A program made the translations under genes and the position numbers. Of a DNA stretch of 59,594 nucleotides, positions 19,115 through 53,749 are shown one piece after another (positions within the stretch are counted from its first letter, which is position 1; every line of letters begins with the position of its first letter). Below the pieces are notes generated by a model. It was not told the origin of the DNA. It worked only from the letters and a program-made list of their open reading frames with translations, and did not search any database. Source of the DNA: an uncultured Chitinophaga sp. (GTDB taxonomy: Bacteria > Planctomycetota > Phycisphaerae > Phycisphaerales > SM1A02); assembly GCA_964430235.1 (NCBI GenBank), contig CAYSFS010000001.1, forward strand, positions 1 to 59,594, written 5' to 3'.

Positions 19115-19144
19115 GCGGCGGTCGCCTCCGTCAGGTCAGTGGTT

Positions 19145-20209
<1,065 letters not shown>

Positions 20210-21414: not shown

Positions 21415-22809
21415 TCAGGCCTCGCCGCGGGCCAGCGCCTGCTCGATCCGGGCCACGTCGCTGCCGAGCGCGGGGTCGTTCTGCGAGCGCGCCGACACGG
21501 TGCGCACCGCGTGCATCACGGTGGTGTGGTCGCGTCCGCCGAAATAGCCGCCGATCTCCTCGAGCGAGAACCGCGTGTGCTTGCGCGCGAGCCACATGCA
21601 CACCTGGCGGGGCAGCGCGATGCTCTTGTGCCGGCGCTTGGACATCAGGTCGCTGAGCTTGATGTCGTAGTAGCGCGTCACGGCCTCGATGATCTGCTGG
21701 ATCGTCGGCTGCGCGGGATCGTTGCCCGCGGCCGGCCGGCCGTCGGCGATGGCCTGCTTCGCGAGTTCGAGCGTGATCGGCTGGCCCGTTGCCATGGCGA
21801 TGCCGCGCAGCCGCGCCAATGCGCCCTCGAGCTCGCGGATGTTCGCGTCGATGCGCGCGGCCACGTAGGCAGGAACGTCGTCCGGGAGCTCCAGGTCGTG
21901 GAGCCTGGCCTTCGCCTTCAGGATCTCCACGCGCGTCTCGTACGCGGGCCGGTCGATGCGCGCGACCAGCCCGCTGTTGAAGCGGCTCACCAGCCGCTCC
22001 TCGAGGTCGGGAATGTCCGCCGGGGCGGCGTCCGAGCTCAGCACCAGCTGCTTGCCCGCCTGGTAGAGCGCGTTGAACGTGTGGAAGAACTCCTCCTGGG
22101 TCTGCTCGTGGCGCGACAGGAAGTGGATGTCGTCGATCACGAGCACGTCGGCGTTGCGGAACCGATGCCGGAACTCGTGCATCCGGCCCGCGCGCACCGC
22201 CTCATGGAACACGTCCATGAAGGTGCTGCACGAGATGTACGCGATGCGGACGGACGGGTCGCGCCGCAGCATGTCCTGGCAGATCGCCTGCAGGAGATGC
22301 GTCTTGCCGAGCCCCACGCCGCCGTGGACGAAGTACGGGTTGTAGGAACGCCCGGGCTTCTGGGCCACGGCCTGCGCGGCCGCATGGGCCAGGCGGTTCG
22401 TCGGACCCACCACGAACGTGTCGAACACGTAGTCCGGCGAGAGCAGGATGCGTTCGTCGAAGAGCGCCTCGGCCGAGGGGGCCTGGACGTTCGTCGGTGC
22501 GGGGGTCGCGGCCTCCGGGACGCGCTCCCCCACGAACTTGACGCCCACCAGCCGGCCCGTGGCCGCCGCGGCGGCCGCCGTGAACGGCGGGACGCAGCAG
22601 CGCTGGAGGTAGGACAGCCGCACCGGCTCCTCGACCAGGAGCGTCAGGTTCGCGCCGTCGAGCGCGAGCACCTCGATGTCGTCGAACCAGTGCCTGCACA
22701 CCTCGGCATGGTGCCTGCGCAGGTGCTCGAAGAGCCGCTGCCTCACCGACGCCAGCGCCGCTCCCCCGCCCCGCGCGTCTTCGTTTCCATGCGGGGTTCG
22801 TGCGGGCAT
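21415..22809 (-). CDS. dnaA: chromosomal replication initiator protein DnaA
   Basis: 464 aa. Motifs FVVGPTNRLAHAAA, NPYFVHGGVGLGKTHLLQAI and VLVIDDIHFL are present, along with a C-terminal DNA-binding helix region (RHKSIALPRQVCMWLARK). Confidence 0.95.
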   Translation of the reverse strand: MPARTPHGNEDARGGGAALASVRQRLFEHLRRHHAEVCRHWFDDIEVLALDGANLTLLVEEPVRLSYLQRCCVPPFTAAAAAATGRLVGVKFVGERVPEAATPAPTNVQAPSAEALFDERILLSPDYVFDTFVVGPTNRLAHAAAQAVAQKPGRSYNPYFVHGGVGLGKTHLLQAICQDMLRRDPSVRIAYISCSTFMDVFHEAVRAGRMHEFRHRFRNADVLVIDDIHFLSRHEQTQEEFFHTFNALYQAGKQLVLSSDAAPADIPDLEERLVSRFNSGLVARIDRPAYETRVEILKAKARLHDLELPDDVPAYVAARIDANIRELEGALARLRGIAMATGQPITLELAKQAIADGRPAAGNDPAQPTIQQIIEAVTRYYDIKLSDLMSKRRHKSIALPRQVCMWLARKHTRFSLEEIGGYFGGRDHTTVMHAVRTVSARSQNDPALGSDVARIEQALARGEA

Positions 22810-39875: not shown

Positions 39876-41051
39876 ATGCACCCCTGGCTCTCACGGTCCA
39901 TCGTGGCGTGCGTCCTCGCCTCCTCGTCCGCTGTGTGGGCGGACGGCCTGCCGTCCGGTTCAGGGCAGACGCTGCCCCCGGACGTGCAGGAGGCGGTGAG
40001 CCACGCCAGGAACCTCTCGCGCGCCTTCCGTGCCGTCGCCAAGCATGCGGCACCCTCGGTGGTCTCAATCGAGGTGGTCCCGCAGGCCACGCCCGGCGTG
40101 GTCCGCATGCGCGGCATGGGGCCGTTGCAGGTGGTGCCGATGCAGGTCCCGCAGGGCATGGGCACCGGCTTCGTCGTGAGCGACGAGGGCCACGTCGTCA
40201 CGAACAACCACGTCGTCCGCATGGGAGGCCGCATCCGCGTGAAGTTGCACGACGGCCGCGAGTCCGATGCCCGGCTCGTCGGGTCCGACGCCGAGACCGA
40301 CCTCGCCGTGCTGAAGGTCGACCTTCCCGACCTGGTGCCGATCGCGTTCGGCGACAGCGACGCGGCCGAGGTCGGCGACTGGGTGATCGCCCTCGGTGCG
40401 CCGTTCGGCCTGCGAGACACCGTCACGGCCGGCATCATCAGCGCGAAGGGCCGTGAGGTGGGGCTCAGCCCGCTCGAGAGCTACCTGCAGACCGACGCCA
40501 CGATCAACCCCGGAAACTCGGGCGGCCCGCTCGTCGACATGGACGGGCGCGTGGTCGGCATCAACACCGCCATCGAGAGCCGCAGCGGAGGCTCGGACGG
40601 CATCGGCTTCGCGATTCCCGCCACCCTGGCCCGGGACGTCGTCGACTCGATCATCGCCGGTAGCGCGCCGGCGCGCGGGTTCCTCGGGGTGCAGATGCAG
40701 CCCGTGGCCGTGCGCCGCGCCTCCGGCACGGTCGCCGACGGCGGCGTGATGGTCGCGTCCGTGGTCGAGGATGGCCCCGCGGCCCGCGCGGGCATCGAGC
40801 CGGGCGACGTGATCGTCAAGGTGAACGGGACCGAGACCCCCGACATGCGGCGCGTGATGCGCCAGATCCGCCTGTGCAAGCCCGGCACCGAGTGCGTCGT
40901 CGAGGTGATGCGGGACGGCGAGGCGCTCGAGGTGAAGGCCATGCTCGAGGACGCGCCGCGCGCGGTCGCTGCGGCCGGTTCGTCCATGGCCCCGCGGCCC
41001 GCCCCTGCGGCGCCTCGCATCACCGTTCCCGACCGCCTTCGGCAGCAGTGA
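39876..41051 (+). CDS. HtrA/DegP family serine protease with PDZ domain
   Basis: The protein has a signal peptide. Catalytic triad contexts are present (GTGFVVSDEGHVVTNNHVV and TDATINPGNSGGPLV), and the C-terminus is PDZ-like. Confidence 0.92.
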   Translation: MHPWLSRSIVACVLASSSAVWADGLPSGSGQTLPPDVQEAVSHARNLSRAFRAVAKHAAPSVVSIEVVPQATPGVVRMRGMGPLQVVPMQVPQGMGTGFVVSDEGHVVTNNHVVRMGGRIRVKLHDGRESDARLVGSDAETDLAVLKVDLPDLVPIAFGDSDAAEVGDWVIALGAPFGLRDTVTAGIISAKGREVGLSPLESYLQTDATINPGNSGGPLVDMDGRVVGINTAIESRSGGSDGIGFAIPATLARDVVDSIIAGSAPARGFLGVQMQPVAVRRASGTVADGGVMVASVVEDGPAARAGIEPGDVIVKVNGTETPDMRRVMRQIRLCKPGTECVVEVMRDGEALEVKAMLEDAPRAVAAAGSSMAPRPAPAAPRITVPDRLRQQ

Positions 41052-41158
41052 CCGTCGCGGCCGTTCCGCGACCCCCGGCCCAAGCCCCCACGACCCCGGT
41101 CCGTGCCGCGAAGCGGCCGGGCCGGGTGTGCTTGCGGACCTACGATGCGCCGTTCCCG

Positions 41159-42298
41159 ATGCGGCACGCCCACGTCCCGGCCACCCTCGACGTCCCGTTC
41201 TCGGTGCCTTTCCGGCACCGGGTGACGTTCACGCGCGGCGCGCTCGACGCAGGCAACCCGTCGCTCGCCGACGCGCTGGCGGGTTCGGCGCGCTGCATCG
41301 CGTTCGTCGACGAGGGCGTTGCGGCAGCGCATCCGGAGCTCGGCGCGCGCCTGGCGGCGTACCTGCGCGCGCGCGACGGCATGCCCGAGCTCGCGTGCGT
41401 CGAGACGGTGCCGGGGGGCGAGCGCTGCAAGCGCTCCATGGACGTGCCCGATCGCGTGGTGCGCGCCGTCGACGCGCACCGGATCGACCGCCAGAGCTGC
41501 GTGATCGCGGTGGGCGGCGGGGCGACGCTCGATGCCGTCGGGTTCGGCGCCGCGATCGCGCACCGCGGGTGCCGCCTGGTGCGGCTGCCGACCACGACGC
41601 TCTCCCAGGATGACGCGGGCATGGCCGTCAAGAACGGCATCAATGCCGGCGGGAAGAAGAACTTCGTCGGCGCGTTCGCCGTTCCCCATGCCGTGGTCTG
41701 CGACGAGGCGCTGCTCGAGTCGTCGCCGGAGTGGAGCTGGATCGGCGGCTTCAGCGAGGCGGTGAAGATCGCGCTCCTGCGCGACCCCGTGCTGTTCGCG
41801 CGGATCGAGCGCGACGCCGCGGCCATCCGCGCGCGCGACATGGCCGCGGCGATGCCGGTCGTCGTGCGCAGCGCCGAGCTGCACTACCGGCACATCGTGC
41901 TCGGGGGCGACCCCTTCGAGGTGCGGAGCGCGCGCCCGCTCGACTTCGGGCACTGGCTGGCGCACCGGCTCGAGGGGATGACGGACAGCGAGCTCCCGCA
42001 CGGCCAGGCCGTGGCGATCGGCGTCGCGGTCGACACGACGTACTCGGTGCATGCGGGGCTGCTCGACGCGTCGTCGGGTGCACGCGTCGTCGCCGTGCTG
42101 CGCGCGCTCGGGCTTCCGACCTCGCATCCCCTGCTCGCCGACCTCGGCGCGGTCGAGGCGGGCCTCGAGGAGTTCCGCGAGCACCTCGGAGGCCGGCTCA
42201 CGATCACGCTCCTGCGGGCGATCGGCGAGGGGACCGACGTCCATGCGATCGACCCGTCGCTCCTGCGCCGCGCGGTGCTCGACGCGGCCTCCACCTAG
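41159..42298 (+). CDS. eboD: 3-dehydroquinate-synthase-like sugar phosphate cyclase (EboD-like)
   Basis: DHQS-superfamily motifs are present: VIAVGGGATLDAVGFGAAIAHRGCRLVRLPTTTLSQDDAGMAVKNGIN and HGQAVAIG. The Ebo assignment comes from clustering with TatD, UbiA and TIM-barrel genes. GTG 41126 is an alternative start. Confidence 0.75.
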   Translation: MRHAHVPATLDVPFSVPFRHRVTFTRGALDAGNPSLADALAGSARCIAFVDEGVAAAHPELGARLAAYLRARDGMPELACVETVPGGERCKRSMDVPDRVVRAVDAHRIDRQSCVIAVGGGATLDAVGFGAAIAHRGCRLVRLPTTTLSQDDAGMAVKNGINAGGKKNFVGAFAVPHAVVCDEALLESSPEWSWIGGFSEAVKIALLRDPVLFARIERDAAAIRARDMAAAMPVVVRSAELHYRHIVLGGDPFEVRSARPLDFGHWLAHRLEGMTDSELPHGQAVAIGVAVDTTYSVHAGLLDASSGARVVAVLRALGLPTSHPLLADLGAVEAGLEEFREHLGGRLTITLLRAIGEGTDVHAIDPSLLRRAVLDAAST

Positions 42299-42308
42299 AC
42301 TTGCGCCC

Positions 42309-42620
42309 ATGGCAGCAGGCGCGAATGGCGGCGGCACGCCGATGACCCGCGCGCAGGTCGTCGACGCGTACTTCATGGAGCACCGTGCGCGGCTGCTCGA
42401 CGTGGCCGCGTTCCTCGACCGCGTCGACCGCGCGGGCGCGGGCGAGGACGACTTCCGGATGCGGGCCTTCCGCGCCGCGGTCGCGATCCTCGGCGACGGC
42501 CGCGCCGACCGCGCCCGCCGCGTGCTCGAGCTCCTGAGCGACCCGTCGTCCGAGCCGGTCGCGAAGGCCGGCATGAAGGGCGCGACCGGCGCGCACGACC
42601 CCGCGAAGGGCGGTGGCTGA
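42309..42620 (+). CDS. small hypothetical protein coupled between eboD-like and eboB-like genes
   Basis: 103-codon frame with strong GC3 bias (MAAGANGGGTPMTRAQVVDAYFMEHRARLLDVAAFLDRVDRAG...). It starts 10 nt after the eboD-like stop, and its stop overlaps the next gene's GTG by 8 nt. I recognise no family. Confidence 0.55.
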   Translation: MAAGANGGGTPMTRAQVVDAYFMEHRARLLDVAAFLDRVDRAGAGEDDFRMRAFRAAVAILGDGRADRARRVLELLSDPSSEPVAKAGMKGATGAHDPAKGGG

Positions 42621-43455
42621 CGTGTACATCGACCCGCACGTGCACATGGTGAGCCGCACGACGGACGACTACGTCCGCATGGCGCGCGCCGGCTGCGTCG
42701 CGATCACCGAGCCCGCCTTCTGGGCCGGCTACGACCGCTCGAGCCCGAAGGGGTTCTTCGACTACTTCCGGCAGCTCACCGAGTCGGAGCCCCGGCGCGC
42801 CGCGCAGTACGGCATCCGCCACCACGCGTGGCTCTGCATCAACCCGAAGGAGGCCGAGGACCCCGTCTTCGCGCGCGAGGTGATCGGGCTGATCCCGGGG
42901 TTCCTCGAGCGCGAGAACGTGCTCGGGATCGGCGAGATCGGGCTCAACAAGAACAGCCGCAACGAGCTCGAGATCCTCGAGGCGCACCTGCAGCTGGCGA
43001 GCGACCACGGGCTCCTGGTGCTGGTGCACACGCCGCACCTCGAGGACAAGCTGAAGGGGACGCGGCTCATCATGGACGCGATCCGCCGGTTCCCCAAGCT
43101 CGACCCTGGCCGCGTCCTCGTCGACCACGTCGAGGAGCACACGGTGGGCCACGTGCTCGACCGCGGGTTCTGGTGCGGCATGACGCTGTACCCGGACACC
43201 AAGTGCACGCCGCAGCGCGCGGTGGACATCATCGAGTGCTGGGGCAGCGAGCGCATCTGGATGAACTCGGCGGGCGACTGGGGGCACAGCGATCCCGTCG
43301 CGGTGCCGAAGGCCCAGATGGAGATGCGCCGCCGCGGCCACCTCGAGTCGCTGGTGCGGCGCGTCACGTTCGAGAACCCCGAGCGGTTCCTCTCGCAGTC
43401 GGGCCGCTTCAGCGCACAGCCCCTGCGCCCGACGGCGCCGGACGTCACGCGATGA
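42613..43455 (+). CDS. eboB: TatD-family metal-dependent hydrolase (EboB-like)
   Basis: GTG start. The N-terminal YIDPHVHM, later GIGEIGLN and LVLVHTP match the TatD/amidohydrolase TIM-barrel pattern. Confidence 0.78.
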   Translation: MADVYIDPHVHMVSRTTDDYVRMARAGCVAITEPAFWAGYDRSSPKGFFDYFRQLTESEPRRAAQYGIRHHAWLCINPKEAEDPVFAREVIGLIPGFLERENVLGIGEIGLNKNSRNELEILEAHLQLASDHGLLVLVHTPHLEDKLKGTRLIMDAIRRFPKLDPGRVLVDHVEEHTVGHVLDRGFWCGMTLYPDTKCTPQRAVDIIECWGSERIWMNSAGDWGHSDPVAVPKAQMEMRRRGHLESLVRRVTFENPERFLSQSGRFSAQPLRPTAPDVTR

Positions 43456-44999
43456 CCGCGCCCGGTGCACCGGCCCCGCACGCGGCGAGCGACGGCGCGC
43501 AGCCGCGGCGCGGGCTGGTGCTCCTGGCGATGACCGGCAGCCTGTCGATGATCTTCATCGACATGACCGTGGTCGGCGTCGCGCTCCCGCGCATCGGCGC
43601 GTCGCTCGGGATGGACGACGTGGGGCAGGCGTGGATCGTGACGAGCTACCTGCTCGCGCTGGCGTCGCTCATGGCGATCGGCGGGCGCGTGGGCGACCTC
43701 GTCGGCAAGGTGCCCGCGTTCGTCGCCGGCGTCGCGGCGTTCGCCGCCGCGAGCGCGGTGTGCGCGTTCGCGCGCGACGGGACGCAGATGATCGCGGGAC
43801 GCGTCCTGCAGGGGGTGGCCGCGTGCCTCATGCAGCCGGCGTCGGGTGCGCTGGTGATCGGCGCGTTCGCGCCGGGCGAGCGGGGCAAGGCGATGGCCGC
43901 GTACGTGGGCATCCCGATGGTGTTCATGGCGCTCGGTCCGGCGGTCGGCGGCCTCATCGTCGAGGGCTGGGGCTGGAAGTGGGTGTTCCTCCTGAACCTG
44001 CCGATCGCCGCGGCCGCCGTCCTGCTCACGCTCGTCGCGCGCCCGCGCGACTCGCGCAGCCCCGACCGCCACATCGACTGGCTCGGCGGCATCCTCCTCA
44101 TGCTGGGGCTGCCACCCCTGGTGTTCGGCATCCAACAGCTGGGCGCCGCGCGCGCGGACGGTTCGCTCCGCTGGGACGATCCCCTCACGCTCGCGGCGCT
44201 CGCTGGGGGCACCGTCGCGCTCGCCGCCTTCGTGCGCCGGCAGTGGAACCACCCGCGTCCGCTGCTGCGGCTGCGCCTCTTCGCCGACCACGCGCTGGCC
44301 GCGGACGCGGTGGTCATCATGTGCATGCAGTTCGCGATGACGGGGCTGGTGGTCGCGGGCTCGCTCTACGCGCAGGACGTGCTCGGGTACTCGCCCACCG
44401 AGGCCGGTGCGTCGCTCCTGCCGATGCTGGCGCCCGTGATCCTGGTGGTGCACGTCGCCGGTCGCTGGTACGACCGCGCGGGCGTGCGCGCGCCCGCGAC
44501 GTGGGGCACCGCGATGGCGAGCGGTGGAATGCTGGTGCAGGCCGCGGGCGCGTGGGCGCAGAGCTACCCCGTGATGGCGGCGGGGATGTTCGTGCTGGGG
44601 CTCGGCATCGCCTTCACGATGAGCCCCACGAACACCGACGCGCTCGGCCGCGTGCCGCATTCCGAGCGCGGACAGGTGTCGGGGCTGGTGCAGACGATGC
44701 GCCAGGTGGGCGGCAGCGTCGGCGTGGCCACGGTGGCCGCGGCGGTCGCGATCTCCATGGGGGCGTTCACGCGCGCCGAGCGGCTCGAGGACCCGGCGTC
44801 CGTGGCGAGGCTTCGGGCGATGCTGCGTTCCGGCGACGCGAACGCGCGCGTGCATGCGTCGTCGGACGCGGACTTCGCGGCCGTGCAACGTGCCTCGGCA
44901 CGTGCCTACGCCGTGGGGTACGGCGTGGCCGCGCTGGGCACGGCGAGCGCGCTCTTCGCGGTGCGCCGCTGGATGAGGCCGGGCAAGCCGGTCACTTGA
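43452..44999 (+). CDS. MFS transporter (DHA2/EmrB-like, about 14 TM segments)
   Basis: ATG 43452 overlaps the eboB-like stop (ATGA). Motifs include MIFIDMTVVGVALPRI and LMAIGGRVGDLVGK, and hydrophobic segments run throughout. Confidence 0.9.
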   Translation: MTAPGAPAPHAASDGAQPRRGLVLLAMTGSLSMIFIDMTVVGVALPRIGASLGMDDVGQAWIVTSYLLALASLMAIGGRVGDLVGKVPAFVAGVAAFAAASAVCAFARDGTQMIAGRVLQGVAACLMQPASGALVIGAFAPGERGKAMAAYVGIPMVFMALGPAVGGLIVEGWGWKWVFLLNLPIAAAAVLLTLVARPRDSRSPDRHIDWLGGILLMLGLPPLVFGIQQLGAARADGSLRWDDPLTLAALAGGTVALAAFVRRQWNHPRPLLRLRLFADHALAADAVVIMCMQFAMTGLVVAGSLYAQDVLGYSPTEAGASLLPMLAPVILVVHVAGRWYDRAGVRAPATWGTAMASGGMLVQAAGAWAQSYPVMAAGMFVLGLGIAFTMSPTNTDALGRVPHSERGQVSGLVQTMRQVGGSVGVATVAAAVAISMGAFTRAERLEDPASVARLRAMLRSGDANARVHASSDADFAAVQRASARAYAVGYGVAALGTASALFAVRRWMRPGKPVT

Positions 45000-47082
45000 C
45001 GGGCGCGGCCTGCACCGGATCGGCCTCGACGCGGATCCGGAACGGGTGCGCGGGCAGCTTGGACGCTTCGTCGACGAGGTTGGCGTCCGCGGGGTTGTCC
45101 TGCCACGCGTAGCGGACCTCGGTCGGGGTGGTCACCTCGGGGCTGCGGACGAAGATCGAGTTCGGCGGCCTGATCTCCGCCTGCGCGATGCGGAACACGC
45201 CGTCCTCGCCGGCGACCGCGATCGCCGCCGGCGCCTTGCCGTCGCGCGTGGCGAGCGTCCCGCGCTCGGCATCGAAGGAGACCACGATCCCGTCGCCCTC
45301 GCGCCTCGCGCTCTTCGGGCGCGGGCCGCGCCACGCCAGGTCCTGGGCGCCGTAGCTCACCGCCCCGGCCCAGCGTGCCAGGCGCTCGCCGACGGAACGC
45401 TTGTCGATCGGGTGGATGTCGTTCGCGTCGCCCACGTCGATCGTCGTGACGACGCCGACGTTCGGGGAGTTCCGCTCGGCCGCCAGCTGGGACTCGCGCA
45501 GGACCGGCCACGTGCCGTGGATCGGCGCGTCCGGCCGGTGCTGCATGAACGACGCCAGGCTGACCACGCCGAAGGGCATGTCGGGCTGCTCGAATGCCGC
45601 GCGCCAGCTCCTGATCACGAGCGGGAGCAGCGTCGCGTAGGCCTCGGCCTCGGCCTCGGATCCCGCGTTGCTCTCGCCTTGGTACCAGATCGCGCCACGG
45701 ACGCCGAACCCCGTGAAGGGCGCGATCATCCCGTTGAAGAGCGCGCCCGGGGACGTGACGGCCGTGCCGGGAGCGGAGTCGCGCACGGGCCGCTCGGGCG
45801 GCTGCGGAAGCCCCTTCGCCTCGCGGCCGAGCCGCATGCGCCACTCGCCGGCGAGCGCGATCGGCGGCTCGGTCGACTCCTTGCACGACAGCTTCATCGC
45901 GGCGGCGTCGCCGCAGAACCCGCCTTCGCCATGCATGTCGAGCACCTGGACGGCGAGCGTCGCCTCGCCGGGCTTCACGAGCTGCGCGGGCACGCGGTAC
46001 CTGCGCGGCGAGGTCCAGTCGGCGATGGTGTTGGCGATCGCACGGCCGTTCCAGAACGCGATGTCCGCGTCGTCGATCGGGCCGAGCTCCAGCGTCAGTT
46101 CCTTGCCGGCCCAGGATTCCGGGATGGTCACCTGGCGGCGGAACCACACGGTGCCGTCGAACCCGCGCAGCTGGGCATCGGCGCTCCACGCCGACGGCAG
46201 CGAGACGGTGCGCCAGTCCTCGCCGTCGGTCACGGTGGCGGGATCGGCCCACTTGCCGGTGATTCCGGGTTCCTCGGCGTTCACCGCGGTCCACCACTGC
46301 GTGCCGGCCGCCTGGAACGCGCGCCGCCGCGCCTCGTAGGCGCGGTCGCGCTCGGCCTGGCCCAGGCGGTGCCATGCATCGACGGCCATGCGCTGGCGCC
46401 CGATGGCCTCGGTGTAGGCGACGTCCGACCCAAGCGTCGCGAGGTCGGCCCACGGCTCGGCGCGCGTGCCGCCCCAGTTGATCGAGAGGATCCCGACCGG
46501 CAGCCCCGTGCGCGCGTGGACGGCGGTCGCGAACCAGAACCCGACCGCCGTCGTCTCGGGCAGCGTCGCCGCGTCGAGCACCTGCCAGCGCGCGTCGATC
46601 GTCTCCGCCGGCCGGTTGGCGGTCACGTGGGGCGCCTTGAGGACGCGGATGGCGCCGTCGAGCGGCACCGACTTCGCGGCCTCGAGCTGCGGCCCCGTCG
46701 CGGCCAGCGGCCACTCCATGTTGCTCTGCCCCCCGGCGACCCACACGTCGCCCACCAGGATGTCACCGACCGTGATCGTGTTCGAGCCCCGGACCTCGAG
46801 GACCAGCGGGTCGTTGCTTCCCTTCAGCGGCTCGAGCGACAGCGCGAAGTGACCCGATTGGTCGGCGGCCGTGCGCCCGCTGCGCATGACGGCTCCCTTG
46901 GAGTCTCGGACCTCGACCGTGATCTCCTCGTGCGTTTGTGCCAGGCCGAACACCCGGACCGGACGGTCGCGCTGGATCACCATGTGGTCGGTGAACGCGG
47001 CGGGAAGCCGGATCTCGGCATGGACGGGAGCGGACGCGGCCAGGGCGACGGCGATCACGAGGGGGGCGCGCATGCTCCGCAT
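44992..47082 (-). CDS. sialate O-acetylesterase-like (SGNH/DUF303) secreted esterase
   Basis: Signal peptide MRSMRAPLVIAVALAASAPVHA. The catalytic block GDVWVAGGQSNMEWPL is present. The remaining ~700 upstream codons of the 1400-aa ORF are read-through. Confidence 0.78.
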   Translation of the reverse strand: MRSMRAPLVIAVALAASAPVHAEIRLPAAFTDHMVIQRDRPVRVFGLAQTHEEITVEVRDSKGAVMRSGRTAADQSGHFALSLEPLKGSNDPLVLEVRGSNTITVGDILVGDVWVAGGQSNMEWPLAATGPQLEAAKSVPLDGAIRVLKAPHVTANRPAETIDARWQVLDAATLPETTAVGFWFATAVHARTGLPVGILSINWGGTRAEPWADLATLGSDVAYTEAIGRQRMAVDAWHRLGQAERDRAYEARRRAFQAAGTQWWTAVNAEEPGITGKWADPATVTDGEDWRTVSLPSAWSADAQLRGFDGTVWFRRQVTIPESWAGKELTLELGPIDDADIAFWNGRAIANTIADWTSPRRYRVPAQLVKPGEATLAVQVLDMHGEGGFCGDAAAMKLSCKESTEPPIALAGEWRMRLGREAKGLPQPPERPVRDSAPGTAVTSPGALFNGMIAPFTGFGVRGAIWYQGESNAGSEAEAEAYATLLPLVIRSWRAAFEQPDMPFGVVSLASFMQHRPDAPIHGTWPVLRESQLAAERNSPNVGVVTTIDVGDANDIHPIDKRSVGERLARWAGAVSYGAQDLAWRGPRPKSARREGDGIVVSFDAERGTLATRDGKAPAAIAVAGEDGVFRIAQAEIRPPNSIFVRSPEVTTPTEVRYAWQDNPADANLVDEASKLPAHPFRIRVEADPVQAAPVK

Positions 47083-47121
47083 GATGCCCGCGGGAGGCGC
47101 CGCATGCAATATCGTCCGCGC

Positions 47122-47796
47122 ATGGCGACGGACCTTCCACCGTTGGTCGGGATCACCGCGGACGTGGCGCACGACGACCGTGGCCGCCCCCGGCACCAGG
47201 TGCGGTCGACCTACGTCGACGCGGTGCTTGCCGCGGGCGGCACTCCCGTGCTGCTTCCGGCGTGCGCCGCATCGCGCGAGCAGGCGCTGGACCGCCTGGA
47301 CGCGGTCGTGATCATCGGGGGCGACGACGTCGACACGCGGCCGTTCGGAATCCCCCTCCACCCGGAGGCGCGCGTGATGGACCCGTCGCGGCAGGCGGCC
47401 GAGCTCGCGCTGCTCGACGCGCTCGGGCGTCGGCCCGCGGTCCCGTTGCTCGGCGTGTGCCTGGGAATGCAGCTCATGGGCGTGCACCGCGGGGCGCGCC
47501 TCATCCAGCACCTCGCGGACGTCATTCCCGACGCCGACCGCCACCGCGACGACCGCGTGCACGCGGTGCGGACGGACCTCGGCTCGGGCCCGGTCGCGAG
47601 CTGGCACCACCAGGCGATCGCGGATGCTCCCGGCTTCGACGTGATCGGCCGTTCCGACGACGGGGTCATCGAGGCCATCCGCGACCCGTCGCGCCCGTTC
47701 TGCGTGGGCGTGCAGTGGCATCCGGAACGCACGGCCGACGAGGCGCTGGGCGTGGGAATCTTCCGCAGGCTCGTGGACGCCGCGCGTGCCCGGTAG
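47122..47796 (+). CDS. class I glutamine amidotransferase / gamma-glutamyl-GABA hydrolase (peptidase C26, PuuD-like)
   Basis: Motifs LLGVCLGMQLM (nucleophile Cys), SWHHQAI and VQWHPE are present. An alternative start is at 47104. Confidence 0.85.
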   Translation: MATDLPPLVGITADVAHDDRGRPRHQVRSTYVDAVLAAGGTPVLLPACAASREQALDRLDAVVIIGGDDVDTRPFGIPLHPEARVMDPSRQAAELALLDALGRRPAVPLLGVCLGMQLMGVHRGARLIQHLADVIPDADRHRDDRVHAVRTDLGSGPVASWHHQAIADAPGFDVIGRSDDGVIEAIRDPSRPFCVGVQWHPERTADEALGVGIFRRLVDAARAR

Positions 47797-47805
47797 CCTG
47801 CGCGC

Positions 47806-48636
47806 ATGCTGACCATCGCGCTTTCCACGGTCCTGTCGCTCGGTGACGTGCTCGCCGCGGGCTCCGCCGCCCCGGCGCTCTCGGTCGAGAAGTTCGTGAA
47901 GGGCGAGGCCGTGCCGGCGTTCGAGCCCGGCAAGGTCTACGTGCTCGAGTTCTGGGCGACGTGGTGCGGGCCGTGCATCCGTGCGATGCCGCACCTCTCG
48001 AAGCTGCAGAAGGACCACCCCGAGCTCACCGTGATCGGCGTGGCGGGATTCGAGCGCGCGGCCGACGCGGCGGCCATGGAGCGGAAGGTGCGCGAGTTCC
48101 TCGACGGCCGCGGCAAGGACGTCGAGTTCCGCATCGCGCTCGACACCGACGGCTCGATGGCGCAGGAATGGATGAACGCCGCGAAGCGACGCACCATCCC
48201 GACGTCCATGGTGGTCGGCAAGGACGGCAAGGTCGCGTTCGTGGGCTCGCCCAACGCCGAGCTCGACGCGGCCGTCCTCGCGGCGCTCGGCAAGGATCCG
48301 GCGGACGCCGACGCGAAGGCGCCCGGGACGAGCGAGCCCGCGTCGAAGTCGCCCGGCACCAAGCCCGCCGAGGGCGTGTGGAAGCGCGGGGATTCCCCCA
48401 AACGGCCGTCGGAGGCCCTCGAGCCGGGCACCACGGAGGAGGTCACGTCGGAACCCACCGACGAGAAGGGCGAGTCGATCAGCGAGTCGACGTCCTCGTC
48501 CTCCTCGACCTCCACGGTGAACGGCGTGACCGTGACCGAGACGGTCACCGAGACCGTGCGCGTCGAGGTGCGCAACGGGACGAAGACCACCACGAAGCGC
48601 CGCACGGTGACGCGCTCCGACGCCCCGAAGCCCTGA
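47806..48636 (+). CDS. TlpA-like thioredoxin-fold thiol:disulfide oxidoreductase with a long low-complexity tail
   Basis: Signal-like N-terminus and FWATWCGPC active site. The ~120-aa Ser/Thr/Glu/Pro-rich C-terminal extension includes TVTETVTETVRVEV. Confidence 0.85.
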   Translation: MLTIALSTVLSLGDVLAAGSAAPALSVEKFVKGEAVPAFEPGKVYVLEFWATWCGPCIRAMPHLSKLQKDHPELTVIGVAGFERAADAAAMERKVREFLDGRGKDVEFRIALDTDGSMAQEWMNAAKRRTIPTSMVVGKDGKVAFVGSPNAELDAAVLAALGKDPADADAKAPGTSEPASKSPGTKPAEGVWKRGDSPKRPSEALEPGTTEEVTSEPTDEKGESISESTSSSSSTSTVNGVTVTETVTETVRVEVRNGTKTTTKRRTVTRSDAPKP

Positions 48637-48643
48637 GGTCCGG

Positions 48644-49816
48644 GTGCTCCCGGCGTACTGCACGAACGTCCTGGCCGGACGCACGCTCGAGGAGACGCGG
48701 GCCGCGGTCATCGGCACGATGGGCGCGGTGCGGTCGCGCGTCGCCCCCGGGTCGACGCTGCCGGTCGGGCTGTGGCTTTCGTCGCGTGCGGCGGAGGAGC
48801 TGGCGGCCGAGCCCGACGGCGCGCGCCGCCTGCGCGACGACCTCGGGAACGCGGGGCTCGCGGTCGTCACGCTGAACGGGTTCCCGTACCACGACTTCCA
48901 CCTGCCGACCGTGAAGCACGCGGTGTACGAGCCGCACTGGGCCGACGTGCGTCGGCTGATGCACACGACGCGGCTCGCGGACCTGCTGGTGGACCTCCTT
49001 CCCGCGGGCGCCGCGCGGGCCTCGATCAGCACGCTCCCGCTCGGCTGGCGCGAGCGCTTCAGCCTCGAGGGCTGCGGCGCGAGCGTGGGGCTCGCGGGCG
49101 CGATGCTCGAGCAGCTCGCCGCGCACCTCGCGCGCCTCGAGGACCGCACCGGCGTGCGCGTCACGGTCGACCTCGAGCCCGAGCCCGGGTGCATGCTCGA
49201 CCGTGCGCGCGACCTCGTCGGCTTCCTCGAGCACGCGCTGCGTTCCCGTGCGGGCGGGCCGGACGTGCGTCGCTACGTGGGCGTGTGCCACGACACGTGC
49301 CACTCCGCCGTCATGTTCGAGGGCCAGCGCGAGGCGCTGCGGGCGTACCGCGACGCGGGCATCGGCGTCCACAAGGTGCAGGTCTCGAGCGCCGTCGAGG
49401 CCGACGGGTCGCCCGATTCGCTGCTCGTGCTCTCGGCCTTCGCGGAGCCGCGGTGGCTGCACCAGACGTGCGTGCGGCGCGCGGACGGCACCGTCGGATT
49501 CTGGGAGGACCTGCCTTTCGCGCTCGCGTCGGGGACGCACGGCACGTGGCGCACGCACTTCCACGTGCCGGTCTTCGCGGCACGGCTGGGCGCGCTGGCG
49601 ACGACGCAGGGCGCGATCCTCGAGTGCCTCGAGGAGCTCGCGTCGTGGCCGGAGCCCGATCGCCCGCAGCTCGAGGTCGAGACCTACGCATGGGACGCGC
49701 TGCCGGACGGTGCGCGCGAGGGCCGGGCGCTGGTCGACGGCATCGCGCGCGAGGTGGAGTGGTGCGCCGGCGCGGCCCGGCGTGCCGGGTTCGTGCGGTC
49801 GGGGGGTTCCGCGTGA
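48644..49816 (+). CDS. eboE: xylose-isomerase-like TIM-barrel protein (EboE-like)
   Basis: 390 aa with a GTG start. The layout (..VVTLNGFPY..VYEPHW.., HDTCHSAVMFE, HFHVP, EVETYAW) resembles EboE/sugar-phosphate-isomerase-like TIM barrels. Its position directly upstream of, and overlapping, a UbiA gene supports the call. Confidence 0.68.
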   Translation: MLPAYCTNVLAGRTLEETRAAVIGTMGAVRSRVAPGSTLPVGLWLSSRAAEELAAEPDGARRLRDDLGNAGLAVVTLNGFPYHDFHLPTVKHAVYEPHWADVRRLMHTTRLADLLVDLLPAGAARASISTLPLGWRERFSLEGCGASVGLAGAMLEQLAAHLARLEDRTGVRVTVDLEPEPGCMLDRARDLVGFLEHALRSRAGGPDVRRYVGVCHDTCHSAVMFEGQREALRAYRDAGIGVHKVQVSSAVEADGSPDSLLVLSAFAEPRWLHQTCVRRADGTVGFWEDLPFALASGTHGTWRTHFHVPVFAARLGALATTQGAILECLEELASWPEPDRPQLEVETYAWDALPDGAREGRALVDGIAREVEWCAGAARRAGFVRSGGSA

Positions 49817-50727
49817 GCGCGCGCACCGGCATGGGTGCGTGGCTCGAGCTGATGCGGGTGGGCAACGCACCGACCGTGGTGTCGAACGTGTTCGCCGGGA
49901 TGGCGGTGGGCCTGCAGGCGCGGCTCACGGACGTGCCGGTGCCGTTCGGGCTCGGCGTGGTGCTGGTCGCGGGCACCGCGCTCGCGTACGTGGCGGGCAT
50001 GGTGCTCAACGACGCCTTCGACGCGCAGGTGGATGCGCGCGAACGCCCGTCGCGGCCGATTCCCTCGGGCCGCATCGGCGTCGCGCGGGCGCGGTTCGCA
50101 GGCCTCGCGACGCTCGGCGTGGGCGCCGCGATGCTCGCAAGCGCGGGCGAGGGAACGCACTGGTGGGCCATGCTGCTCGCCGGGTGCGTGGTGCTCTACA
50201 ACGCCGTGCACGCATGGTTGCCCGGCGCGTTCCTGGTGATGGCGGCGTGCCGCGCGATCGTGCCCGTGATCGCGGCGCTCGCCGTGTCGCCGGGCGCCGA
50301 CGGCGCGTTGCTCGGCTGGGTGGCCGGGGGCGCGTTCGCGTACGTCGCCGCGCTGGGGCTCGTCGCGCGCAACGAGGTGCAGGGTTTGCCGCCCGTGGCC
50401 CGCGCGGTCCGGTGGGCGCTGCCGCTCGCGGCGTGCGCGCCCCTCGGCGTGTGGCTGGCCGAGGGCGTGGGGCCGGAGTCGGCCGTGCTGGTGACGCTGG
50501 GGCTCGCGGCGATGGCGGCCGCGGTGGTCGGCGTGGTGACGGGCGTCCGGCTCGCCGCGTCCGGGCGTGCGGGCGCGGTGCCCGCGGCGGTCGGGACATG
50601 GCTCGGCGCGATCCCGCTGGTCGACGCCGCGACGTGCTTCCTGCTCGGGCGACCCCTGCTCGGGCTCCTGTGCATCGCGATGTTCGGCCTGTCGGGCGCC
50701 CTGCGGCCCCGCTTCGCGGCCAGCTGA
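49813..50727 (+). CDS. eboC: UbiA-family prenyltransferase (EboC-like)
   Basis: GTG 49813 overlaps the eboE-like stop (GTGA); ATG 49831 is an alternative start. The first Asp-rich motif NDAFDAQVDARERPSRPIPSG is present, and the protein is multi-TM. Confidence 0.8.
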   Translation: MSARTGMGAWLELMRVGNAPTVVSNVFAGMAVGLQARLTDVPVPFGLGVVLVAGTALAYVAGMVLNDAFDAQVDARERPSRPIPSGRIGVARARFAGLATLGVGAAMLASAGEGTHWWAMLLAGCVVLYNAVHAWLPGAFLVMAACRAIVPVIAALAVSPGADGALLGWVAGGAFAYVAALGLVARNEVQGLPPVARAVRWALPLAACAPLGVWLAEGVGPESAVLVTLGLAAMAAAVVGVVTGVRLAASGRAGAVPAAVGTWLGAIPLVDAATCFLLGRPLLGLLCIAMFGLSGALRPRFAAS

Positions 50728-50750: not shown

Positions 50751-51146
50751 ATGACGGTCCTCGCGTCCTCCGACCTCACCACCTACATCCCGATCGCGAT
50801 GGCGATCGGGATGAGCGTCGTGTTCGCCATCGTGAACATCGGCGCGAGCGCCCTGCTCGGTCCGCGCCGCGAGGGCGCGATCAAGGGCGACACCTACGAG
50901 TCGGGCATGGCGGCGATCGGCACCGCACGCAAGCGCTTCAACGTGCGCTTCTTCGTGGTGGCGATGACCTTCCTGCTCTTCGACGTCGAGGTGATCTTCC
51001 TGTACCCGTGGGCCGTGGCCTACGCGCAGCTCGAGCCGCAGAGCCCGATGGCCGGCCTGTTCCTGGCGCGCATCCTGTTCTTCATCGCCACCAGCGTGCT
51101 CGCGTACATGTACGCCTGGCGCAAGGGCGTCTTCCGCTGGGATTGA
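50751..51146 (+). CDS. nuoA: NADH-quinone oxidoreductase subunit A
   Basis: 131 aa with three TM segments. The sequence YESGM...RFNVRFFVVAMTFLLFDVEVIFLYPWAV is the NuoA/ND3 signature. Confidence 0.85.
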   Translation: MTVLASSDLTTYIPIAMAIGMSVVFAIVNIGASALLGPRREGAIKGDTYESGMAAIGTARKRFNVRFFVVAMTFLLFDVEVIFLYPWAVAYAQLEPQSPMAGLFLARILFFIATSVLAYMYAWRKGVFRWD

Positions 51147-51156
51147 TCGGCGCTTC

Positions 51157-52620
51157 GTGCCCAGCCAGCCCACGCTCACGTTCTTCGGTGCCGCAGGCGA
51201 GGTCACGGGGAGCTGCACGCTCCTCGAGACGGAGCACGCCAGGATCCTCGTGGATTTCGGCCTTTTCCAGGGGTCCCCGGCGCAGGAGCTCCGCAACGTC
51301 GAGGCCCCGCCGGTCGACTTCCGCCGGCTGGATGCGGTGGTCTGCACGCACGCGCACATCGATCACTGCGGCCGGCTCGGCATGCTCCCGCGGCTCGGCT
51401 TCGACCGCGTGATCCTGTGCACGGAGCCCACCGCCGAGCTGCTGCCCATGGTGCTCAAGAGCTCCGCGAACCTGCAGAAGGTGCGGCTCACCGAGCATCG
51501 CGACGGCACCGGCCCCGAGGCGGTGGTGGTCGATCCGCCGCCCGACCCGGCGATCGCCGCGGCGATGGAGCGGTTCGAGGACCCGCCCGTCCTCTACGGC
51601 GCGGGCGATGCCGAGCGCACCGCGCGCATGGTGGTGGGCATTCCCTACGGCGCATGGCGTGACGTCGCCTCCGGCGTGCGCGTGCGGCTGCACGACGCGG
51701 GCCACGTGATCGGGAGCGCGTCCGTGGAGTTCGAGGTCACGTACGGCGCGTCGCGCACGCGCATCGTGTTCTCCGGTGACGTGGGGCCCACGGGCGACGG
51801 ATACCTCGCCGAGCGCGGGCGCTGCCCGGACGCGGACGTGGTCGTCATGGAGTCGACCACGGGCGCGCGGCCCGACGACGCCCCGAGCAGCGACATCGCG
51901 GCCGAGCTGCGGCGCGTGGTCGAGGATTGCCGTCATGGCGCCCGGACCGCCGTCATGCCCACGTTCAGCGTGGGCCGCGGACAGCTCATCGTGCATCACC
52001 TGGCCCGTCTGGCCCATGAGGGCGCGCTGGAGGGCGTCCCGGTCTACCTCGACAGCCCGATGGCGATCCGGGCGTCCGAGCTCTGCCGCAGGCACCCTTC
52101 GCTTCTTTCGGCGACCGCGCGCGGCATGACGAGCGCGGGACGCTCGCCTTTCGAGTTCGACGGGCTGCATTGCCTGTGGTCCCGCAAGCATTCGTTGCGC
52201 GTGGCCGGGCGCTCCGGTGCGGGGATCGTGCTTGCAGGCAGCGGTTTCTGCGATGCGGGCCCGGTGCTCCACCATCTCGAGCAGCGGCTCGGCGACGACC
52301 GGGGACTCGTCGTGTTCACGGGGTACGTGCTGCCTGGCTCGTTGGCCGAGGCCCTGGCCGAGGGCCGTGCGCGGCGCGTACGGATCAACGGGACCGAGAT
52401 CGACGTGCGTGCTCGCGTGCGGCGGCTGCATGGGTTGAGCGGCCACGCGGACCCTGGGCAGATGGTGGACTGGATCGCCGGCGGGGGCCGCGCACCGTCC
52501 ATGGTGATGCTGAACCACGGCGACCCGGTGGCACGCGAGGGGATGCGCGCCCGCGTGCAACGTGCGGGGGTGTCTTGCGTCGACACCCCGGCGCCACTGA
52601 AGCCGATCGTGGTCGGCTGA
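51157..52620 (+). CDS. MBL-fold beta-CASP family hydrolase (RNase J/CPSF-like)
   Basis: GTG start. Motifs TFFGAAGEVTGSC, HxHxDH (CTHAHIDHCG) and a C-terminal LSGHAD (beta-CASP motif C region) are present. Confidence 0.85.
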   Translation: MPSQPTLTFFGAAGEVTGSCTLLETEHARILVDFGLFQGSPAQELRNVEAPPVDFRRLDAVVCTHAHIDHCGRLGMLPRLGFDRVILCTEPTAELLPMVLKSSANLQKVRLTEHRDGTGPEAVVVDPPPDPAIAAAMERFEDPPVLYGAGDAERTARMVVGIPYGAWRDVASGVRVRLHDAGHVIGSASVEFEVTYGASRTRIVFSGDVGPTGDGYLAERGRCPDADVVVMESTTGARPDDAPSSDIAAELRRVVEDCRHGARTAVMPTFSVGRGQLIVHHLARLAHEGALEGVPVYLDSPMAIRASELCRRHPSLLSATARGMTSAGRSPFEFDGLHCLWSRKHSLRVAGRSGAGIVLAGSGFCDAGPVLHHLEQRLGDDRGLVVFTGYVLPGSLAEALAEGRARRVRINGTEIDVRARVRRLHGLSGHADPGQMVDWIAGGGRAPSMVMLNHGDPVAREGMRARVQRAGVSCVDTPAPLKPIVVG

Positions 52621-52677
52621 TTGATGTCCAAATAACATCACATCAAGGTGAGGTGGTGTGGACCGCTACGCTGTGGG

Positions 52678-52693
52678 TGTTCCACGTGGAACG
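52678..52693. promoter_or_regulatory. parS centromere-like site (TGTTCCACGTGGAACG)
   Basis: 15 of 16 positions match a perfect palindrome, and the site is near-identical to the canonical TGTTNCACGTGAAACA. It ends 21 nt upstream of the parB ATG. Confidence 0.8.
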
Positions 52694-52714
52694 TCAACGC
52701 ACGGAGGTATATCC

Positions 52715-53749
52715 ATGGCAAAGCAGAGCATTGGCAAGCACGATCAATCCCCTTCGCGGCTTGGACGTGGGTTGGGGGCGTTGATTCCGGTTCCGGTCGC
52801 GCGGCCAATGCCGCCCAGCACGACCCCTGTGGCAATGAACCAAACCCAGGTTGAGTCTGACGCAACCCCAGCACGGCGAACCACCGTGGAGCCAAAGGAA
52901 TCTTCGTCGGTGGAGACCGGCACTGTCCATGTGATTTCCCTGCCGGTCGACGCGATTTCACCCGGCGAGTTCCAGCCACGCGAGCACATCGCTCCGCAAG
53001 CACTGGCATCATTGGCGGAGAGCATCCGGCAGGCGGGCCTGATGCAGCCAGTCGTGGTTCGCGCAATGGCCGGTGGACGCCATGAACTCATCGCGGGCGA
53101 GCGCCGTTGGCGTGCCGTCATGTCTTTGGGGTGGACGCACATCCCTGCCATCGTGCAGGCGGTGAGCGACCAGGCGGCCGCGGAACTCGCGTTGATCGAG
53201 AACGTGCAGCGCGAGGACCTGAACCCCATGGAGCGGGCCAAGGCGCTCCGCCGGCTGGTGGATGAGTTCGGGTTGTCGCATCAGGAAGTCGGCCAACGGG
53301 TGGGGCTCGATCGCGCCACGGTCACGAACTTGCTTCGGTTGAATGAGCTTGACGGTGCCACTGGACAGGCGGTCCGTGACGGCACGATCTCCATGGGACA
53401 CGCCAAGGTGCTGCTTGGGGTCACCGACCTGGCTCGGCGGTCCGAAGTGTTGCGACAGGCGGTCAATGAGTCGTGGTCGGTACGACAGCTCGAGGACGCG
53501 GTCCGGGCGTCATCGCCACGTGTTCCACGTGGAACATCCGGGCGGTCGGGGGTTGGCGTCACGGCCTCTCCGAGCGCGCACATTGCACAACTCCAGCGGG
53601 CGCTTGAGGAACACCTTGGGACCCGGGTTCACGTGAAGGTGGGGCGCCGCAAGGGTGCAGGGGAGATTCGGATCGCCTTTCACTCACTCGATGAGTTCGA
53701 TGGCCTCATGCAGCGAATCGGGTTCAACACCAATCGACTCATTGTATAG
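52715..53749 (+). CDS. parB: chromosome partitioning protein ParB
   Basis: GGAGG lies 8 nt upstream of the ATG. Motifs GLGRGLGALIP, the ParB box GEFQPRE...LAESIRQAGLMQPVVVR...LIAGERRWRA and a helix-turn-helix (SHQEVGQRVGLDRATVTNLLRL) are present. Confidence 0.93.
   Translation: MAKQSIGKHDQSPSRLGRGLGALIPVPVARPMPPSTTPVAMNQTQVESDATPARRTTVEPKESSSVETGTVHVISLPVDAISPGEFQPREHIAPQALASLAESIRQAGLMQPVVVRAMAGGRHELIAGERRWRAVMSLGWTHIPAIVQAVSDQAAAELALIENVQREDLNPMERAKALRRLVDEFGLSHQEVGQRVGLDRATVTNLLRLNELDGATGQAVRDGTISMGHAKVLLGVTDLARRSEVLRQAVNESWSVRQLEDAVRASSPRVPRGTSGRSGVGVTASPSAHIAQLQRALEEHLGTRVHVKVGRRKGAGEIRIAFHSLDEFDGLMQRIGFNTNRLIV
53521..53536. promoter_or_regulatory. parS site, perfect 16-bp palindrome TGTTCCACGTGGAACA (inside parB)
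   Basis: Read directly from the sequence. It encodes ..RVPRGT.. within the parB C-terminal linker. An intragenic parS in parB is a common arrangement. Confidence 0.85.

Follow-up and report, generated by a model that had tools for sequence, protein, structure and literature searches.

How should an ebo gene set be read when its members lie in two co-oriented blocks, eboD-eboG-eboB and eboE-eboC, separated by 5.2 kb that include one gene on the opposite strand, and when neither eboA nor eboF accompanies them? The question is raised by positions 41159 to 50727 of a 59,594-nucleotide stretch of DNA (contig CAYSFS010000001.1 of assembly GCA_964430235.1; this whole stretch is hereafter called the window), in which an initial annotation made from the sequence alone had seen a split and rearranged ebo-like cluster coupled to a transporter of the major facilitator superfamily (MFS). 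Our analysis supports, with a probability of roughly 78%, a reading of the locus as an eboG-type ebo operon in the form found in Phycisphaerales, interrupted by insertions. It is a genuine ebo cluster of a published type in a lineage where such clusters were previously undescribed, and it is neither rearranged nor a categorically new system.

Because the window has a G+C content of 73%, spurious frames dominate its raw lists of open reading frames (ORFs). Coding frames were chosen by the G+C content at codon positions (GC3), and each candidate was then checked by scans with Pfam and NCBIfam hidden Markov models (HMMs). The gene coordinates given in the initial annotation all proved correct by these means, and the two overlaps that it had noted, ATGA at 43452-43455 and GTGA at 49813-49816, could both be read directly in the sequence. 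The ebo genes of the locus are as follows.

41159-42298, plus strand: eboD, a sugar phosphate cyclase resembling dehydroquinate synthase (DHQS), with an alternative in-frame GTG start at 41126
42309-42620, plus strand: eboG, an ORF of 103 amino acids between eboD and eboB
42613/42622-43455, plus strand: eboB, a TatD-like metal-dependent hydrolase, starting at GTG 42613 (which overlaps the eboG stop) or GTG 42622
48644-49816, plus strand: eboE, a xylose-isomerase-like TIM barrel (NF035939)
49813-50727, plus strand: eboC, a UbiA-family prenyltransferase whose GTG start overlaps the eboE stop

For eboC, the start lies 51 nt further upstream in the public annotation of a 4-kb contig, whereas the alignment of homologs favors 49813; eboC overlaps eboE under either choice.

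As controls for the assignment of these genes, we used three annotated complete ebo clusters on plasmids of Deinococcus, Salipiger, and Azospirillum. EboE matches the NCBIfam equivalog model TIM_EboE (NF035939) over its full length with 376.8 bits, well above the cut-off of 250, and is 38 to 40% identical to the annotated EboE of the three control clusters. The DHQS-like protein behaves as one of the EboD type, as had been proposed, and unlike AroB: it passes NF004852 (445.5 bits; cut-off, 333) and stays under the cut-off of the AroB equivalog TIGR01357 (193.3 bits; cut-off, 305), the same pattern that is given by the three control EboDs (543 to 585 bits and 200 to 220 bits, respectively). It is 47 to 50% identical to the EboD proteins of the three control clusters, and its top match in the PDB is the cyclase 4p53, with DHQS entries ranking lower. 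That EboE passes its equivalog cut-off and that EboD behaves like cluster-embedded EboDs together uphold the identification of the locus as an ebo cluster. The best NCBIfam model for EboC is the EboC model NF035940, with 105.9 bits and thus below the cut-off of 250; since in the three control clusters the undisputed EboCs reach just 89 to 96 bits (135 in a compact relative, L073), this cut-off is non-discriminating outside ABCDEF-type clusters. The window's EboC is 34 to 41% identical to the control EboCs, and the alignment shows the conserved motifs NDAFDAxxDxxERPxRPIPSG and ARxE and a C-terminal DA motif. EboB, which reaches 33.9 bits with Pfam TatD_DNase (cut-off, 27) and has 3guw as its nearest relative in the PDB, is 58% identical to EboB of Deinococcus versus 43 to 45% to EboB of the eboA-type clusters.

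The short gene between eboD and eboB, which the initial annotation had listed as a small unknown, accounts for the missing eboA. NCBIfam and Pfam scans of this ORF and 15 homologs gave no match at E values up to 10, so that its identity rests on the comparison with the Deinococcus cluster. There, a hypothetical protein occupies the same position between the DHQS and TatD genes, and the window protein aligns with it by BLASTP at 44% identity (E value, 6e-17) and by hhalign with a probability of 98.6%. The study that defined the ebo cluster described an alternative operon in Deinococcales, Herpetosiphon, and others, in which a short unrelated protein, EboG, replaces EboA (Yurchenko et al., 2016, PMC5133447); our identification of the Deinococcus protein as EboG relies on where it lies and on this description instead of on a deposited sequence of EboG. 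The product of 42309-42620 is thus EboG, the known substitute for EboA, to which it shows no similarity, and the absence of eboA is therefore the published eboA/eboG alternative. The published EboB tree divides in the same way into eboA- and eboG-associated branches (PMC5133447), and the closer relationship of the window's EboB to Deinococcus than to eboA-type proteins, as judged from identities only, is consistent with that split.

Every related locus with coverage of this region has EboG encoded between eboD and eboB. The family comprises at least 4904 database sequences; among the 120 listed, all of those that are named are called hypothetical, and none carries a Pfam domain. An AlphaFold2 model (mean predicted local distance difference test score, 72) consists of three helices and a disordered tail that bears an invariant KGA.GA motif, and a Foldseek search of the PDB with this model retrieved no similar structure and no functional clue.

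Four more genes lie between eboB and eboE, and it is these that split the operon.

43452-44999, plus strand: DHA2-family (EmrB/QacA) MFS efflux permease, whose ATG overlaps the eboB stop
44992-47082, minus strand: secreted SASA-family carbohydrate esterase with a GH2_N-like jelly-roll insert, recognized by GC3 phase and Pfam
47104-47796, plus strand: Peptidase_C26, a class-I GATase-like amidohydrolase resembling PuuD (Pfam)
47806-48636, plus strand: exported thioredoxin-fold protein of the TlpA/ResA kind with a WCGPC motif (Pfam Redoxin)

For the history of this arrangement, one genome per species was scanned for EboE, which gave 80 loci, and all window proteins were mapped onto them. The loci are nearly all labeled Planctomycetota, mostly Phycisphaerales, and derive largely from lake and river metagenomes; the closest ones belong to Phycisphaerales/Planctomycetota metagenome-assembled genomes, in line with the label of a genome of the PVC type that had been attached to the window. 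The window's own clade (clade A; G+C content, 55 to 74%) comprises the 27 loci whose EboE is at least 60% identical to that of the window, and the other 53 loci make up clade B. The MFS gene directly follows eboB in 12 of 12 clade A loci versus 1 of 23 in clade B, and the thioredoxin gene lies upstream of eboE in 15/16 versus 1/45. For the C26 gene upstream of eboE, the counts are 16/16 and 40/45. Downstream, NuoA is encoded after eboC in all 22 clade A loci and in 1 of 40 clade B loci, and EboF is encoded downstream of eboE in none of 15 and in 28 of 29, respectively.

The outgroups are contiguous. The Deinococcus plasmid has the order D-G-B-E-C-F, and three metagenomic eboG-type clusters (L117, L092, and L138) follow it, apart from eboC and eboE, which were missed in L117 and L138, respectively. 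Compact relatives within the set (L073, L078, and L064) carry D-G-B-E-C contiguously, followed by an EboC-like paralog and then EboF, and most of clade B is arranged as D-G-B-C26-E-C and, further on, F, at times with more inserts between B and E (DUF3500, unknown ORFs). The order D-G-B-E-C is the native one of eboG-type clusters, as in the Deinococcus plasmid and the three compact relatives, and the claim of a rearranged cluster falls with it. The two halves also belong together: among the loci with enough upstream sequence, they co-occur in 11/11 of clade A and in 14/21 of clade B, as the initial annotation had expected.

Since the outgroups are contiguous, the split is most parsimoniously explained by stepwise insertions into an ancestrally compact operon, together with, in clade A, a breakpoint that follows eboC. 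Starting from an ancestral order eboD-eboG-eboB-eboE-eboC-eboF, an older insertion would have placed the C26 amidohydrolase gene between eboB and eboE. Clade A alone would have gained, by insertion, the DHA2 MFS gene and the convergent gene for the secreted esterase after eboB and the gene for the periplasmic thioredoxin before eboE, while a breakpoint after eboC would have put nuoA and a beta-CASP gene in place of a linked eboF. To the earlier question whether the segment from 44992 to 48636 is an insertion, the answer is that the esterase and thioredoxin genes are insertions specific to clade A, as is the MFS gene at 43452-44999. The PuuD-like C26 gene is not; it is older and, with the counts given above, regularly accompanies eboE throughout Phycisphaerales.

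The genes that follow the proposed breakpoint are listed here with the upstream neighbor of the locus.

39876-41051, plus strand: HtrA protease (GC3 and HMM scans)
50751-51146, plus strand: nuoA (Pfam Oxidored_q4, 6.3e-30)
51157-52620, plus strand: beta-CASP metallo-beta-lactamase (MBL) nuclease with Beta-Casp, Lactamase_B, and RMMBL domains

The nuoA gene begins 23 nt after eboC, is followed by the beta-CASP gene instead of nuoB, and sits where clade B has eboF; the NuoA protein is 100% identical in the loci L001 and L002. Tightly spaced and co-oriented with eboC as they are, nuoA and the beta-CASP gene are not ebo genes. The beta-CASP MBL was considered as a non-orthologous replacement of EboF and set aside for lack of evidence, as it resembles a generic nuclease of the RNase J/CPSF type. 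In clade B, EboC (L073:11212-13356, L064, L060, L052, and L066) carries a CxxC...CxxC zinc-ribbon loop insert that is missing from clade A, and the second EboC-like membrane protein encoded between eboC and eboF in L073, L078, and L064 has a zinc ribbon too.

From 4-nt overlaps and gaps of 7 to 23 nt, the locus is probably organized into two co-directional transcription units, eboD-eboG-eboB-MFS and C26-thioredoxin-eboE-eboC, the latter perhaps running on into nuoA and the beta-CASP gene. Running toward each other from opposite strands, the MFS and esterase genes share 8 nt at their 3' ends (44992-44999), so that no space is left for an intergenic terminator. The start codons of the esterase and C26 genes diverge and lie 21 nt apart (47082 and 47104).

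In comparisons with the two closest loci, L001 and L002 (dS, 0.12 to 0.55), the ratio of nonsynonymous to synonymous substitution rates (dN/dS) is 0.016 to 0.03 for eboB and 0.11 to 0.19 for eboD, eboG, eboE, and eboC (eboD, 0.11; eboG, 0.13 to 0.15; eboC, 0.14 to 0.18). Among the inserted genes, the values are 0.06 to 0.11 for the MFS gene, 0.12 to 0.15 for the C26 gene, and, highest of the block, 0.19 to 0.31 for the thioredoxin gene. All ebo genes are under purifying selection and show no signs of pseudogenes. Because its dN/dS is this low and its identity over the 80 loci (71 to 98%, where EboE has 50 to 92%) lies well above that of its neighbors, EboB appears to be the most constrained enzyme of the pathway.

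How much the inserted genes have to do with the pathway is the point at which the strongest rival explanation enters. Under it, the four inserted genes are all unrelated passengers at an insertion-prone site, and the 4-nt overlap of eboB with the MFS gene means nothing; we lean against this, while regarding it as quite possible. Four-nucleotide overlaps are common in compact operons. The inserts at the eboB-eboE junction differ by lineage and reach about 8 kb, with unknown ORFs and, just upstream of eboE on the opposite strand, a DUF3500 gene (L060:8912-9832, minus strand, and 34 other clade B loci); the unrelated neighbors SpoU and HtrA are equally syntenic; and all four genes are missing from the Deinococcus, Azospirillum, and Salipiger clusters.

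For two of the four, the passenger explanation probably holds. The esterase, of 696 amino acids and encoded on the minus strand by GC3 phase, is longer than a simple esterase, has an N terminus (MRSMRAPLVIAVALAASAPVHA) that resembles a signal peptide, and matches Pfam SASA (5.9e-19) and Glyco_hydro_2_N (4.9e-07). SASA is grouped with the SGNH-type hydrolases, so that the earlier SGNH label is acceptable. The gene is found in clade A only, always between the MFS and C26 genes. The thioredoxin (Pfam Redoxin, 1.1e-13) has, besides its WCGPC motif, an N-terminal hydrophobic segment (residues 1 to 19) and a tail rich in Ser, Thr, and Glu. Both proteins are probably passengers.

The C26 and MFS genes fit that explanation less well. 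The C26 protein (Pfam Peptidase_C26, 9.1e-39) contains the motifs GVCLGMQ and WHPE, which carry the catalytic Cys and His/Glu residues of the family, and its nearest relatives in the PDB are 3fij and PuuD 6vtv. Wherever more inserts occur, its gene keeps a direct ebo neighbor on one of its two sides, overlapping eboB in L060 and abutting eboE in L036. From this we infer that C26 is a lineage-specific accessory enzyme of the ebo cluster in Phycisphaerales. The MFS protein reaches 240.6 bits with TIGR00711 (cut-off, 230.2) and an E value of 5.5e-49 with Pfam MFS_1, and a crude hydropathy scan finds 14 hydrophobic stretches, some of them overlapping, in keeping with the 14-TMS topology of the DHA2 family. 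Its ATGA junction with eboB is kept across the clade (L001, L002, L009, L021, and L047), where the protein is 64 to 97% identical and its gene under the purifying selection noted above. The presumed ebo product is, moreover, secreted.

That product has recently been given a name. The ebo genes had been tied to the export of a scytonemin precursor in Nostoc (PMC6282210) and, in Pseudomonas, to the repelling of nematodes (reviewed in PMC12904256, where an activity of EboD is also reported). A preprint of May 2026 (10.64898/2026.05.21.724671) now assigns them to the biosynthesis of thallusin, which is secreted and binds Fe(III): ebo genes occur in 27 thallusin producers and in none of 8 non-producers, single deletions of eboB, eboC, eboE, or eboF in Stieleria maiorica abolish thallusin production, L-aspartate is incorporated into thallusin, and EboC farnesylates trihydroxyquinaldic acid. 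This preprint and the reported EboD activity have overtaken the remark in the initial annotation that product and chemistry are poorly defined. According to the same preprint, the ebo genes of Planctomycetota are unclustered and lack eboA, a cluster being defined by no fewer than 4 of the 9 target genes, neighboring matches lying at most 6 ORFs apart. By this definition the window holds a cluster, with D, B, E, and C present and four ORFs between B and E, as counted on our gene calls and not by the authors' MMseqs2 search with Maribacter queries.

If the published chemistry carries over, EboB, EboE, and EboF would use L-aspartate to form a hydroxylated quinaldic acid, which EboC would farnesylate, and perhaps cyclize, on the way to saccharoquinoline and the secreted morphogen thallusin, which binds Fe(III). 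For clade A, eboF would be encoded elsewhere in the genome. The adjacency of the MFS gene and its coupling to eboB make it plausible that the permease exports the product or an intermediate.

Several observations weigh against an interrupted but otherwise ordinary eboG-type operon. The assignment of ebo to thallusin comes from a preprint, which names neither eboG nor the class Phycisphaerae, from which no thallusin producer has been reported, and which has transporters only as unrelated entries of a supplementary gene table; the case for export by the MFS consists of adjacency and coupling. Promoter and terminator scans of the locus performed no better than on shuffled sequences. The gene eboF, whose product is of the alkaline phosphatase/nucleotide pyrophosphatase family and whose single deletion abolishes thallusin in S. 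maiorica (10.64898/2026.05.21.724671), is unlinked here. In clade B it lies 1 to 4 kb downstream of eboE, whereas in 15 of 15 informative clade A loci it is missing from at least 6 kb of downstream sequence. A tblastn search with seven EboF queries (four from Phycisphaerales and three from the annotated plasmid-borne clusters) and two EboA queries (from two of those clusters) gave 0 matches in the 59.6-kb window, as the initial annotation had stated for both genes, and tblastn for eboF in the 27 clade A loci likewise found nothing; because EboF is highly conserved across phyla, a copy in the window would have been detected. An indirect search of metagenome contigs by GC-rich codon patterns, which can find only GC-rich codon versions of the gene, yielded 80 eboF loci, none sharing genes with the window, and in a neighbor-joining tree none of these was sister to the EboF of Phycisphaerales.

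The most promising lake group from that search (L107/L148) belongs to Pirellulales or other Planctomycetia. Eight lake-derived eboF genes (L107, L148, L130, L156, L096, L108, L094, and L147) have no other ebo gene nearby, and this orphan group, likewise of Pirellulales or other Planctomycetia, independently illustrates the scattered arrangement reported for Pirellulales.

On these results a second rival could build, namely, that eboF has truly been lost in clade A and that the gain of the exporter, thioredoxin, and C26 has led to the release of a different product, or of a phosphorylated or otherwise altered ebo product, in place of thallusin. Across the 80 loci, the loss of eboF linkage coincides with the gain of the MFS and thioredoxin genes, the retained genes are all under purifying selection, and the high-GC orphan eboF genes of the metagenomes did not group with Phycisphaerales, the one group checked being the planctomycetal one just described. 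We nevertheless consider such a loss unlikely, as scattered ebo genes are known in other Planctomycetota, which makes an unlinked eboF the simpler explanation, and as the search for a clade A eboF was the indirect one described above, limited to GC-rich codon versions. Distinctly unlikely, too, is a wider version in which a widespread freshwater clade of Phycisphaerales rebuilt the ebo/thallusin pathway by dropping eboF, fixing a DHA2 exporter to eboB, and adding C26 and a periplasmic thioredoxin, the outcome being a different quinoline/cyclitol meroterpenoid or an EboF-independent thallusin; if it were true, C26 would be a pathway enzyme not recognized before. With eboF unlinked and an exporter gained, the locus may be the distinct pathway version suggested in the initial annotation.

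That the cluster is a decaying relic, breaking up and no longer functional, might be read from its interruption and the unlinked eboF; this is very improbable, given that all ORFs are intact, that dN/dS is 0.016 to 0.19 for the ebo genes, and that the architecture is stable across clade A with its wide spread in G+C content. Barely conceivable is an ordinary shikimate-pathway aroB beside unrelated TatD, TIM-barrel, and UbiA genes, for although the NCBIfam name of NF004852 is "3-dehydroquinate synthase," that model also matches cluster-embedded EboDs, which fail TIGR01357 as the window protein does, EboE passes its equivalog cut-off, EboG is present, and the five ebo genes co-occur in 25 of the 32 loci with enough upstream sequence.

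The remainder of the window holds further features. DnaA (21415-22746, minus strand) and a full-length ParB (52658-53749, plus strand; ParB_N, HTH_ParB, and ParB_C) are encoded 30 kb apart, the ParB region showing a local dip in G+C to about 0.66, and the window probably lies near the chromosomal origin. Between 30000 and 34000, the G+C fraction is 0.66 to 0.675 versus about 0.73, and a lamin-tail domain, a dockerin, an N-terminal methylation (prepilin-like) motif, and several ORFs without a family occur there; this may be a horizontally acquired island of surface proteins. From 8197 to 20209 on the minus strand runs a block of the MoxR AAA ATPase-DUF58-BatA aerotolerance type, followed by proteins of 1209 and 723 amino acids without family matches; at 8197-9279 (minus strand), a 360-amino-acid protein has weak alpha-alpha-toroid repeats of the squalene-hopene-cyclase/prenyltransferase kind. 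Rfam and tRNA scans returned 0 matches.

For a decade, ebo was an orphan cluster; it is now connected with thallusin, which carries iron and acts on algae as a morphogen at picomolar levels. That abundant lake Phycisphaerales carry an intact and selected eboG-type cluster contradicts the view of unclustered ebo genes in Planctomycetota, while the basic picture of ebo clusters is unchanged. EboG emerges as a large conserved family that travels with eboD and eboB and goes unmentioned in the thallusin preprint. The locus also offers candidate accessory genes, C26 and the coupled DHA2 exporter, and a natural variant with unlinked eboF for probing the steps of the pathway.

Among known systems, the eboG-type operon on the plasmid of Deinococcus sp. 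AB2017081 (NZ_CP140100.1) comes closest, with the same genes in the order D-G-B-E-C, tight overlaps, and EboG in place of EboA; the window differs in that four more genes (MFS, esterase, C26, and thioredoxin) separate eboB from eboE and that eboC has no eboF behind it. With the thallusin-associated eboABCDEF operon of Bacteroidota and eustigmatophyte plastids, it shares orthologs of EboB, EboC, EboD, and EboE, but it has eboG instead of eboA, another gene order, no linked eboF, and accessory genes. The EDB cluster of Pseudomonas fluorescens NZI7 and the ebo cluster of Nostoc punctiforme, which we compared by description only, have homologous core genes and phenotypes that involve exported metabolites; both are eboA-type, and EDB has three other extra genes, while the Nostoc cluster is associated with the scytonemin genes. 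Stieleria maiorica Mal15 (Pirellulales), of the same phylum, is like the window without eboA and with eboF unlinked. In contrast to its scattered ebo genes, those of Phycisphaerales are largely clustered, as D-G-B plus E-C and, in the sister clade, with F as well.

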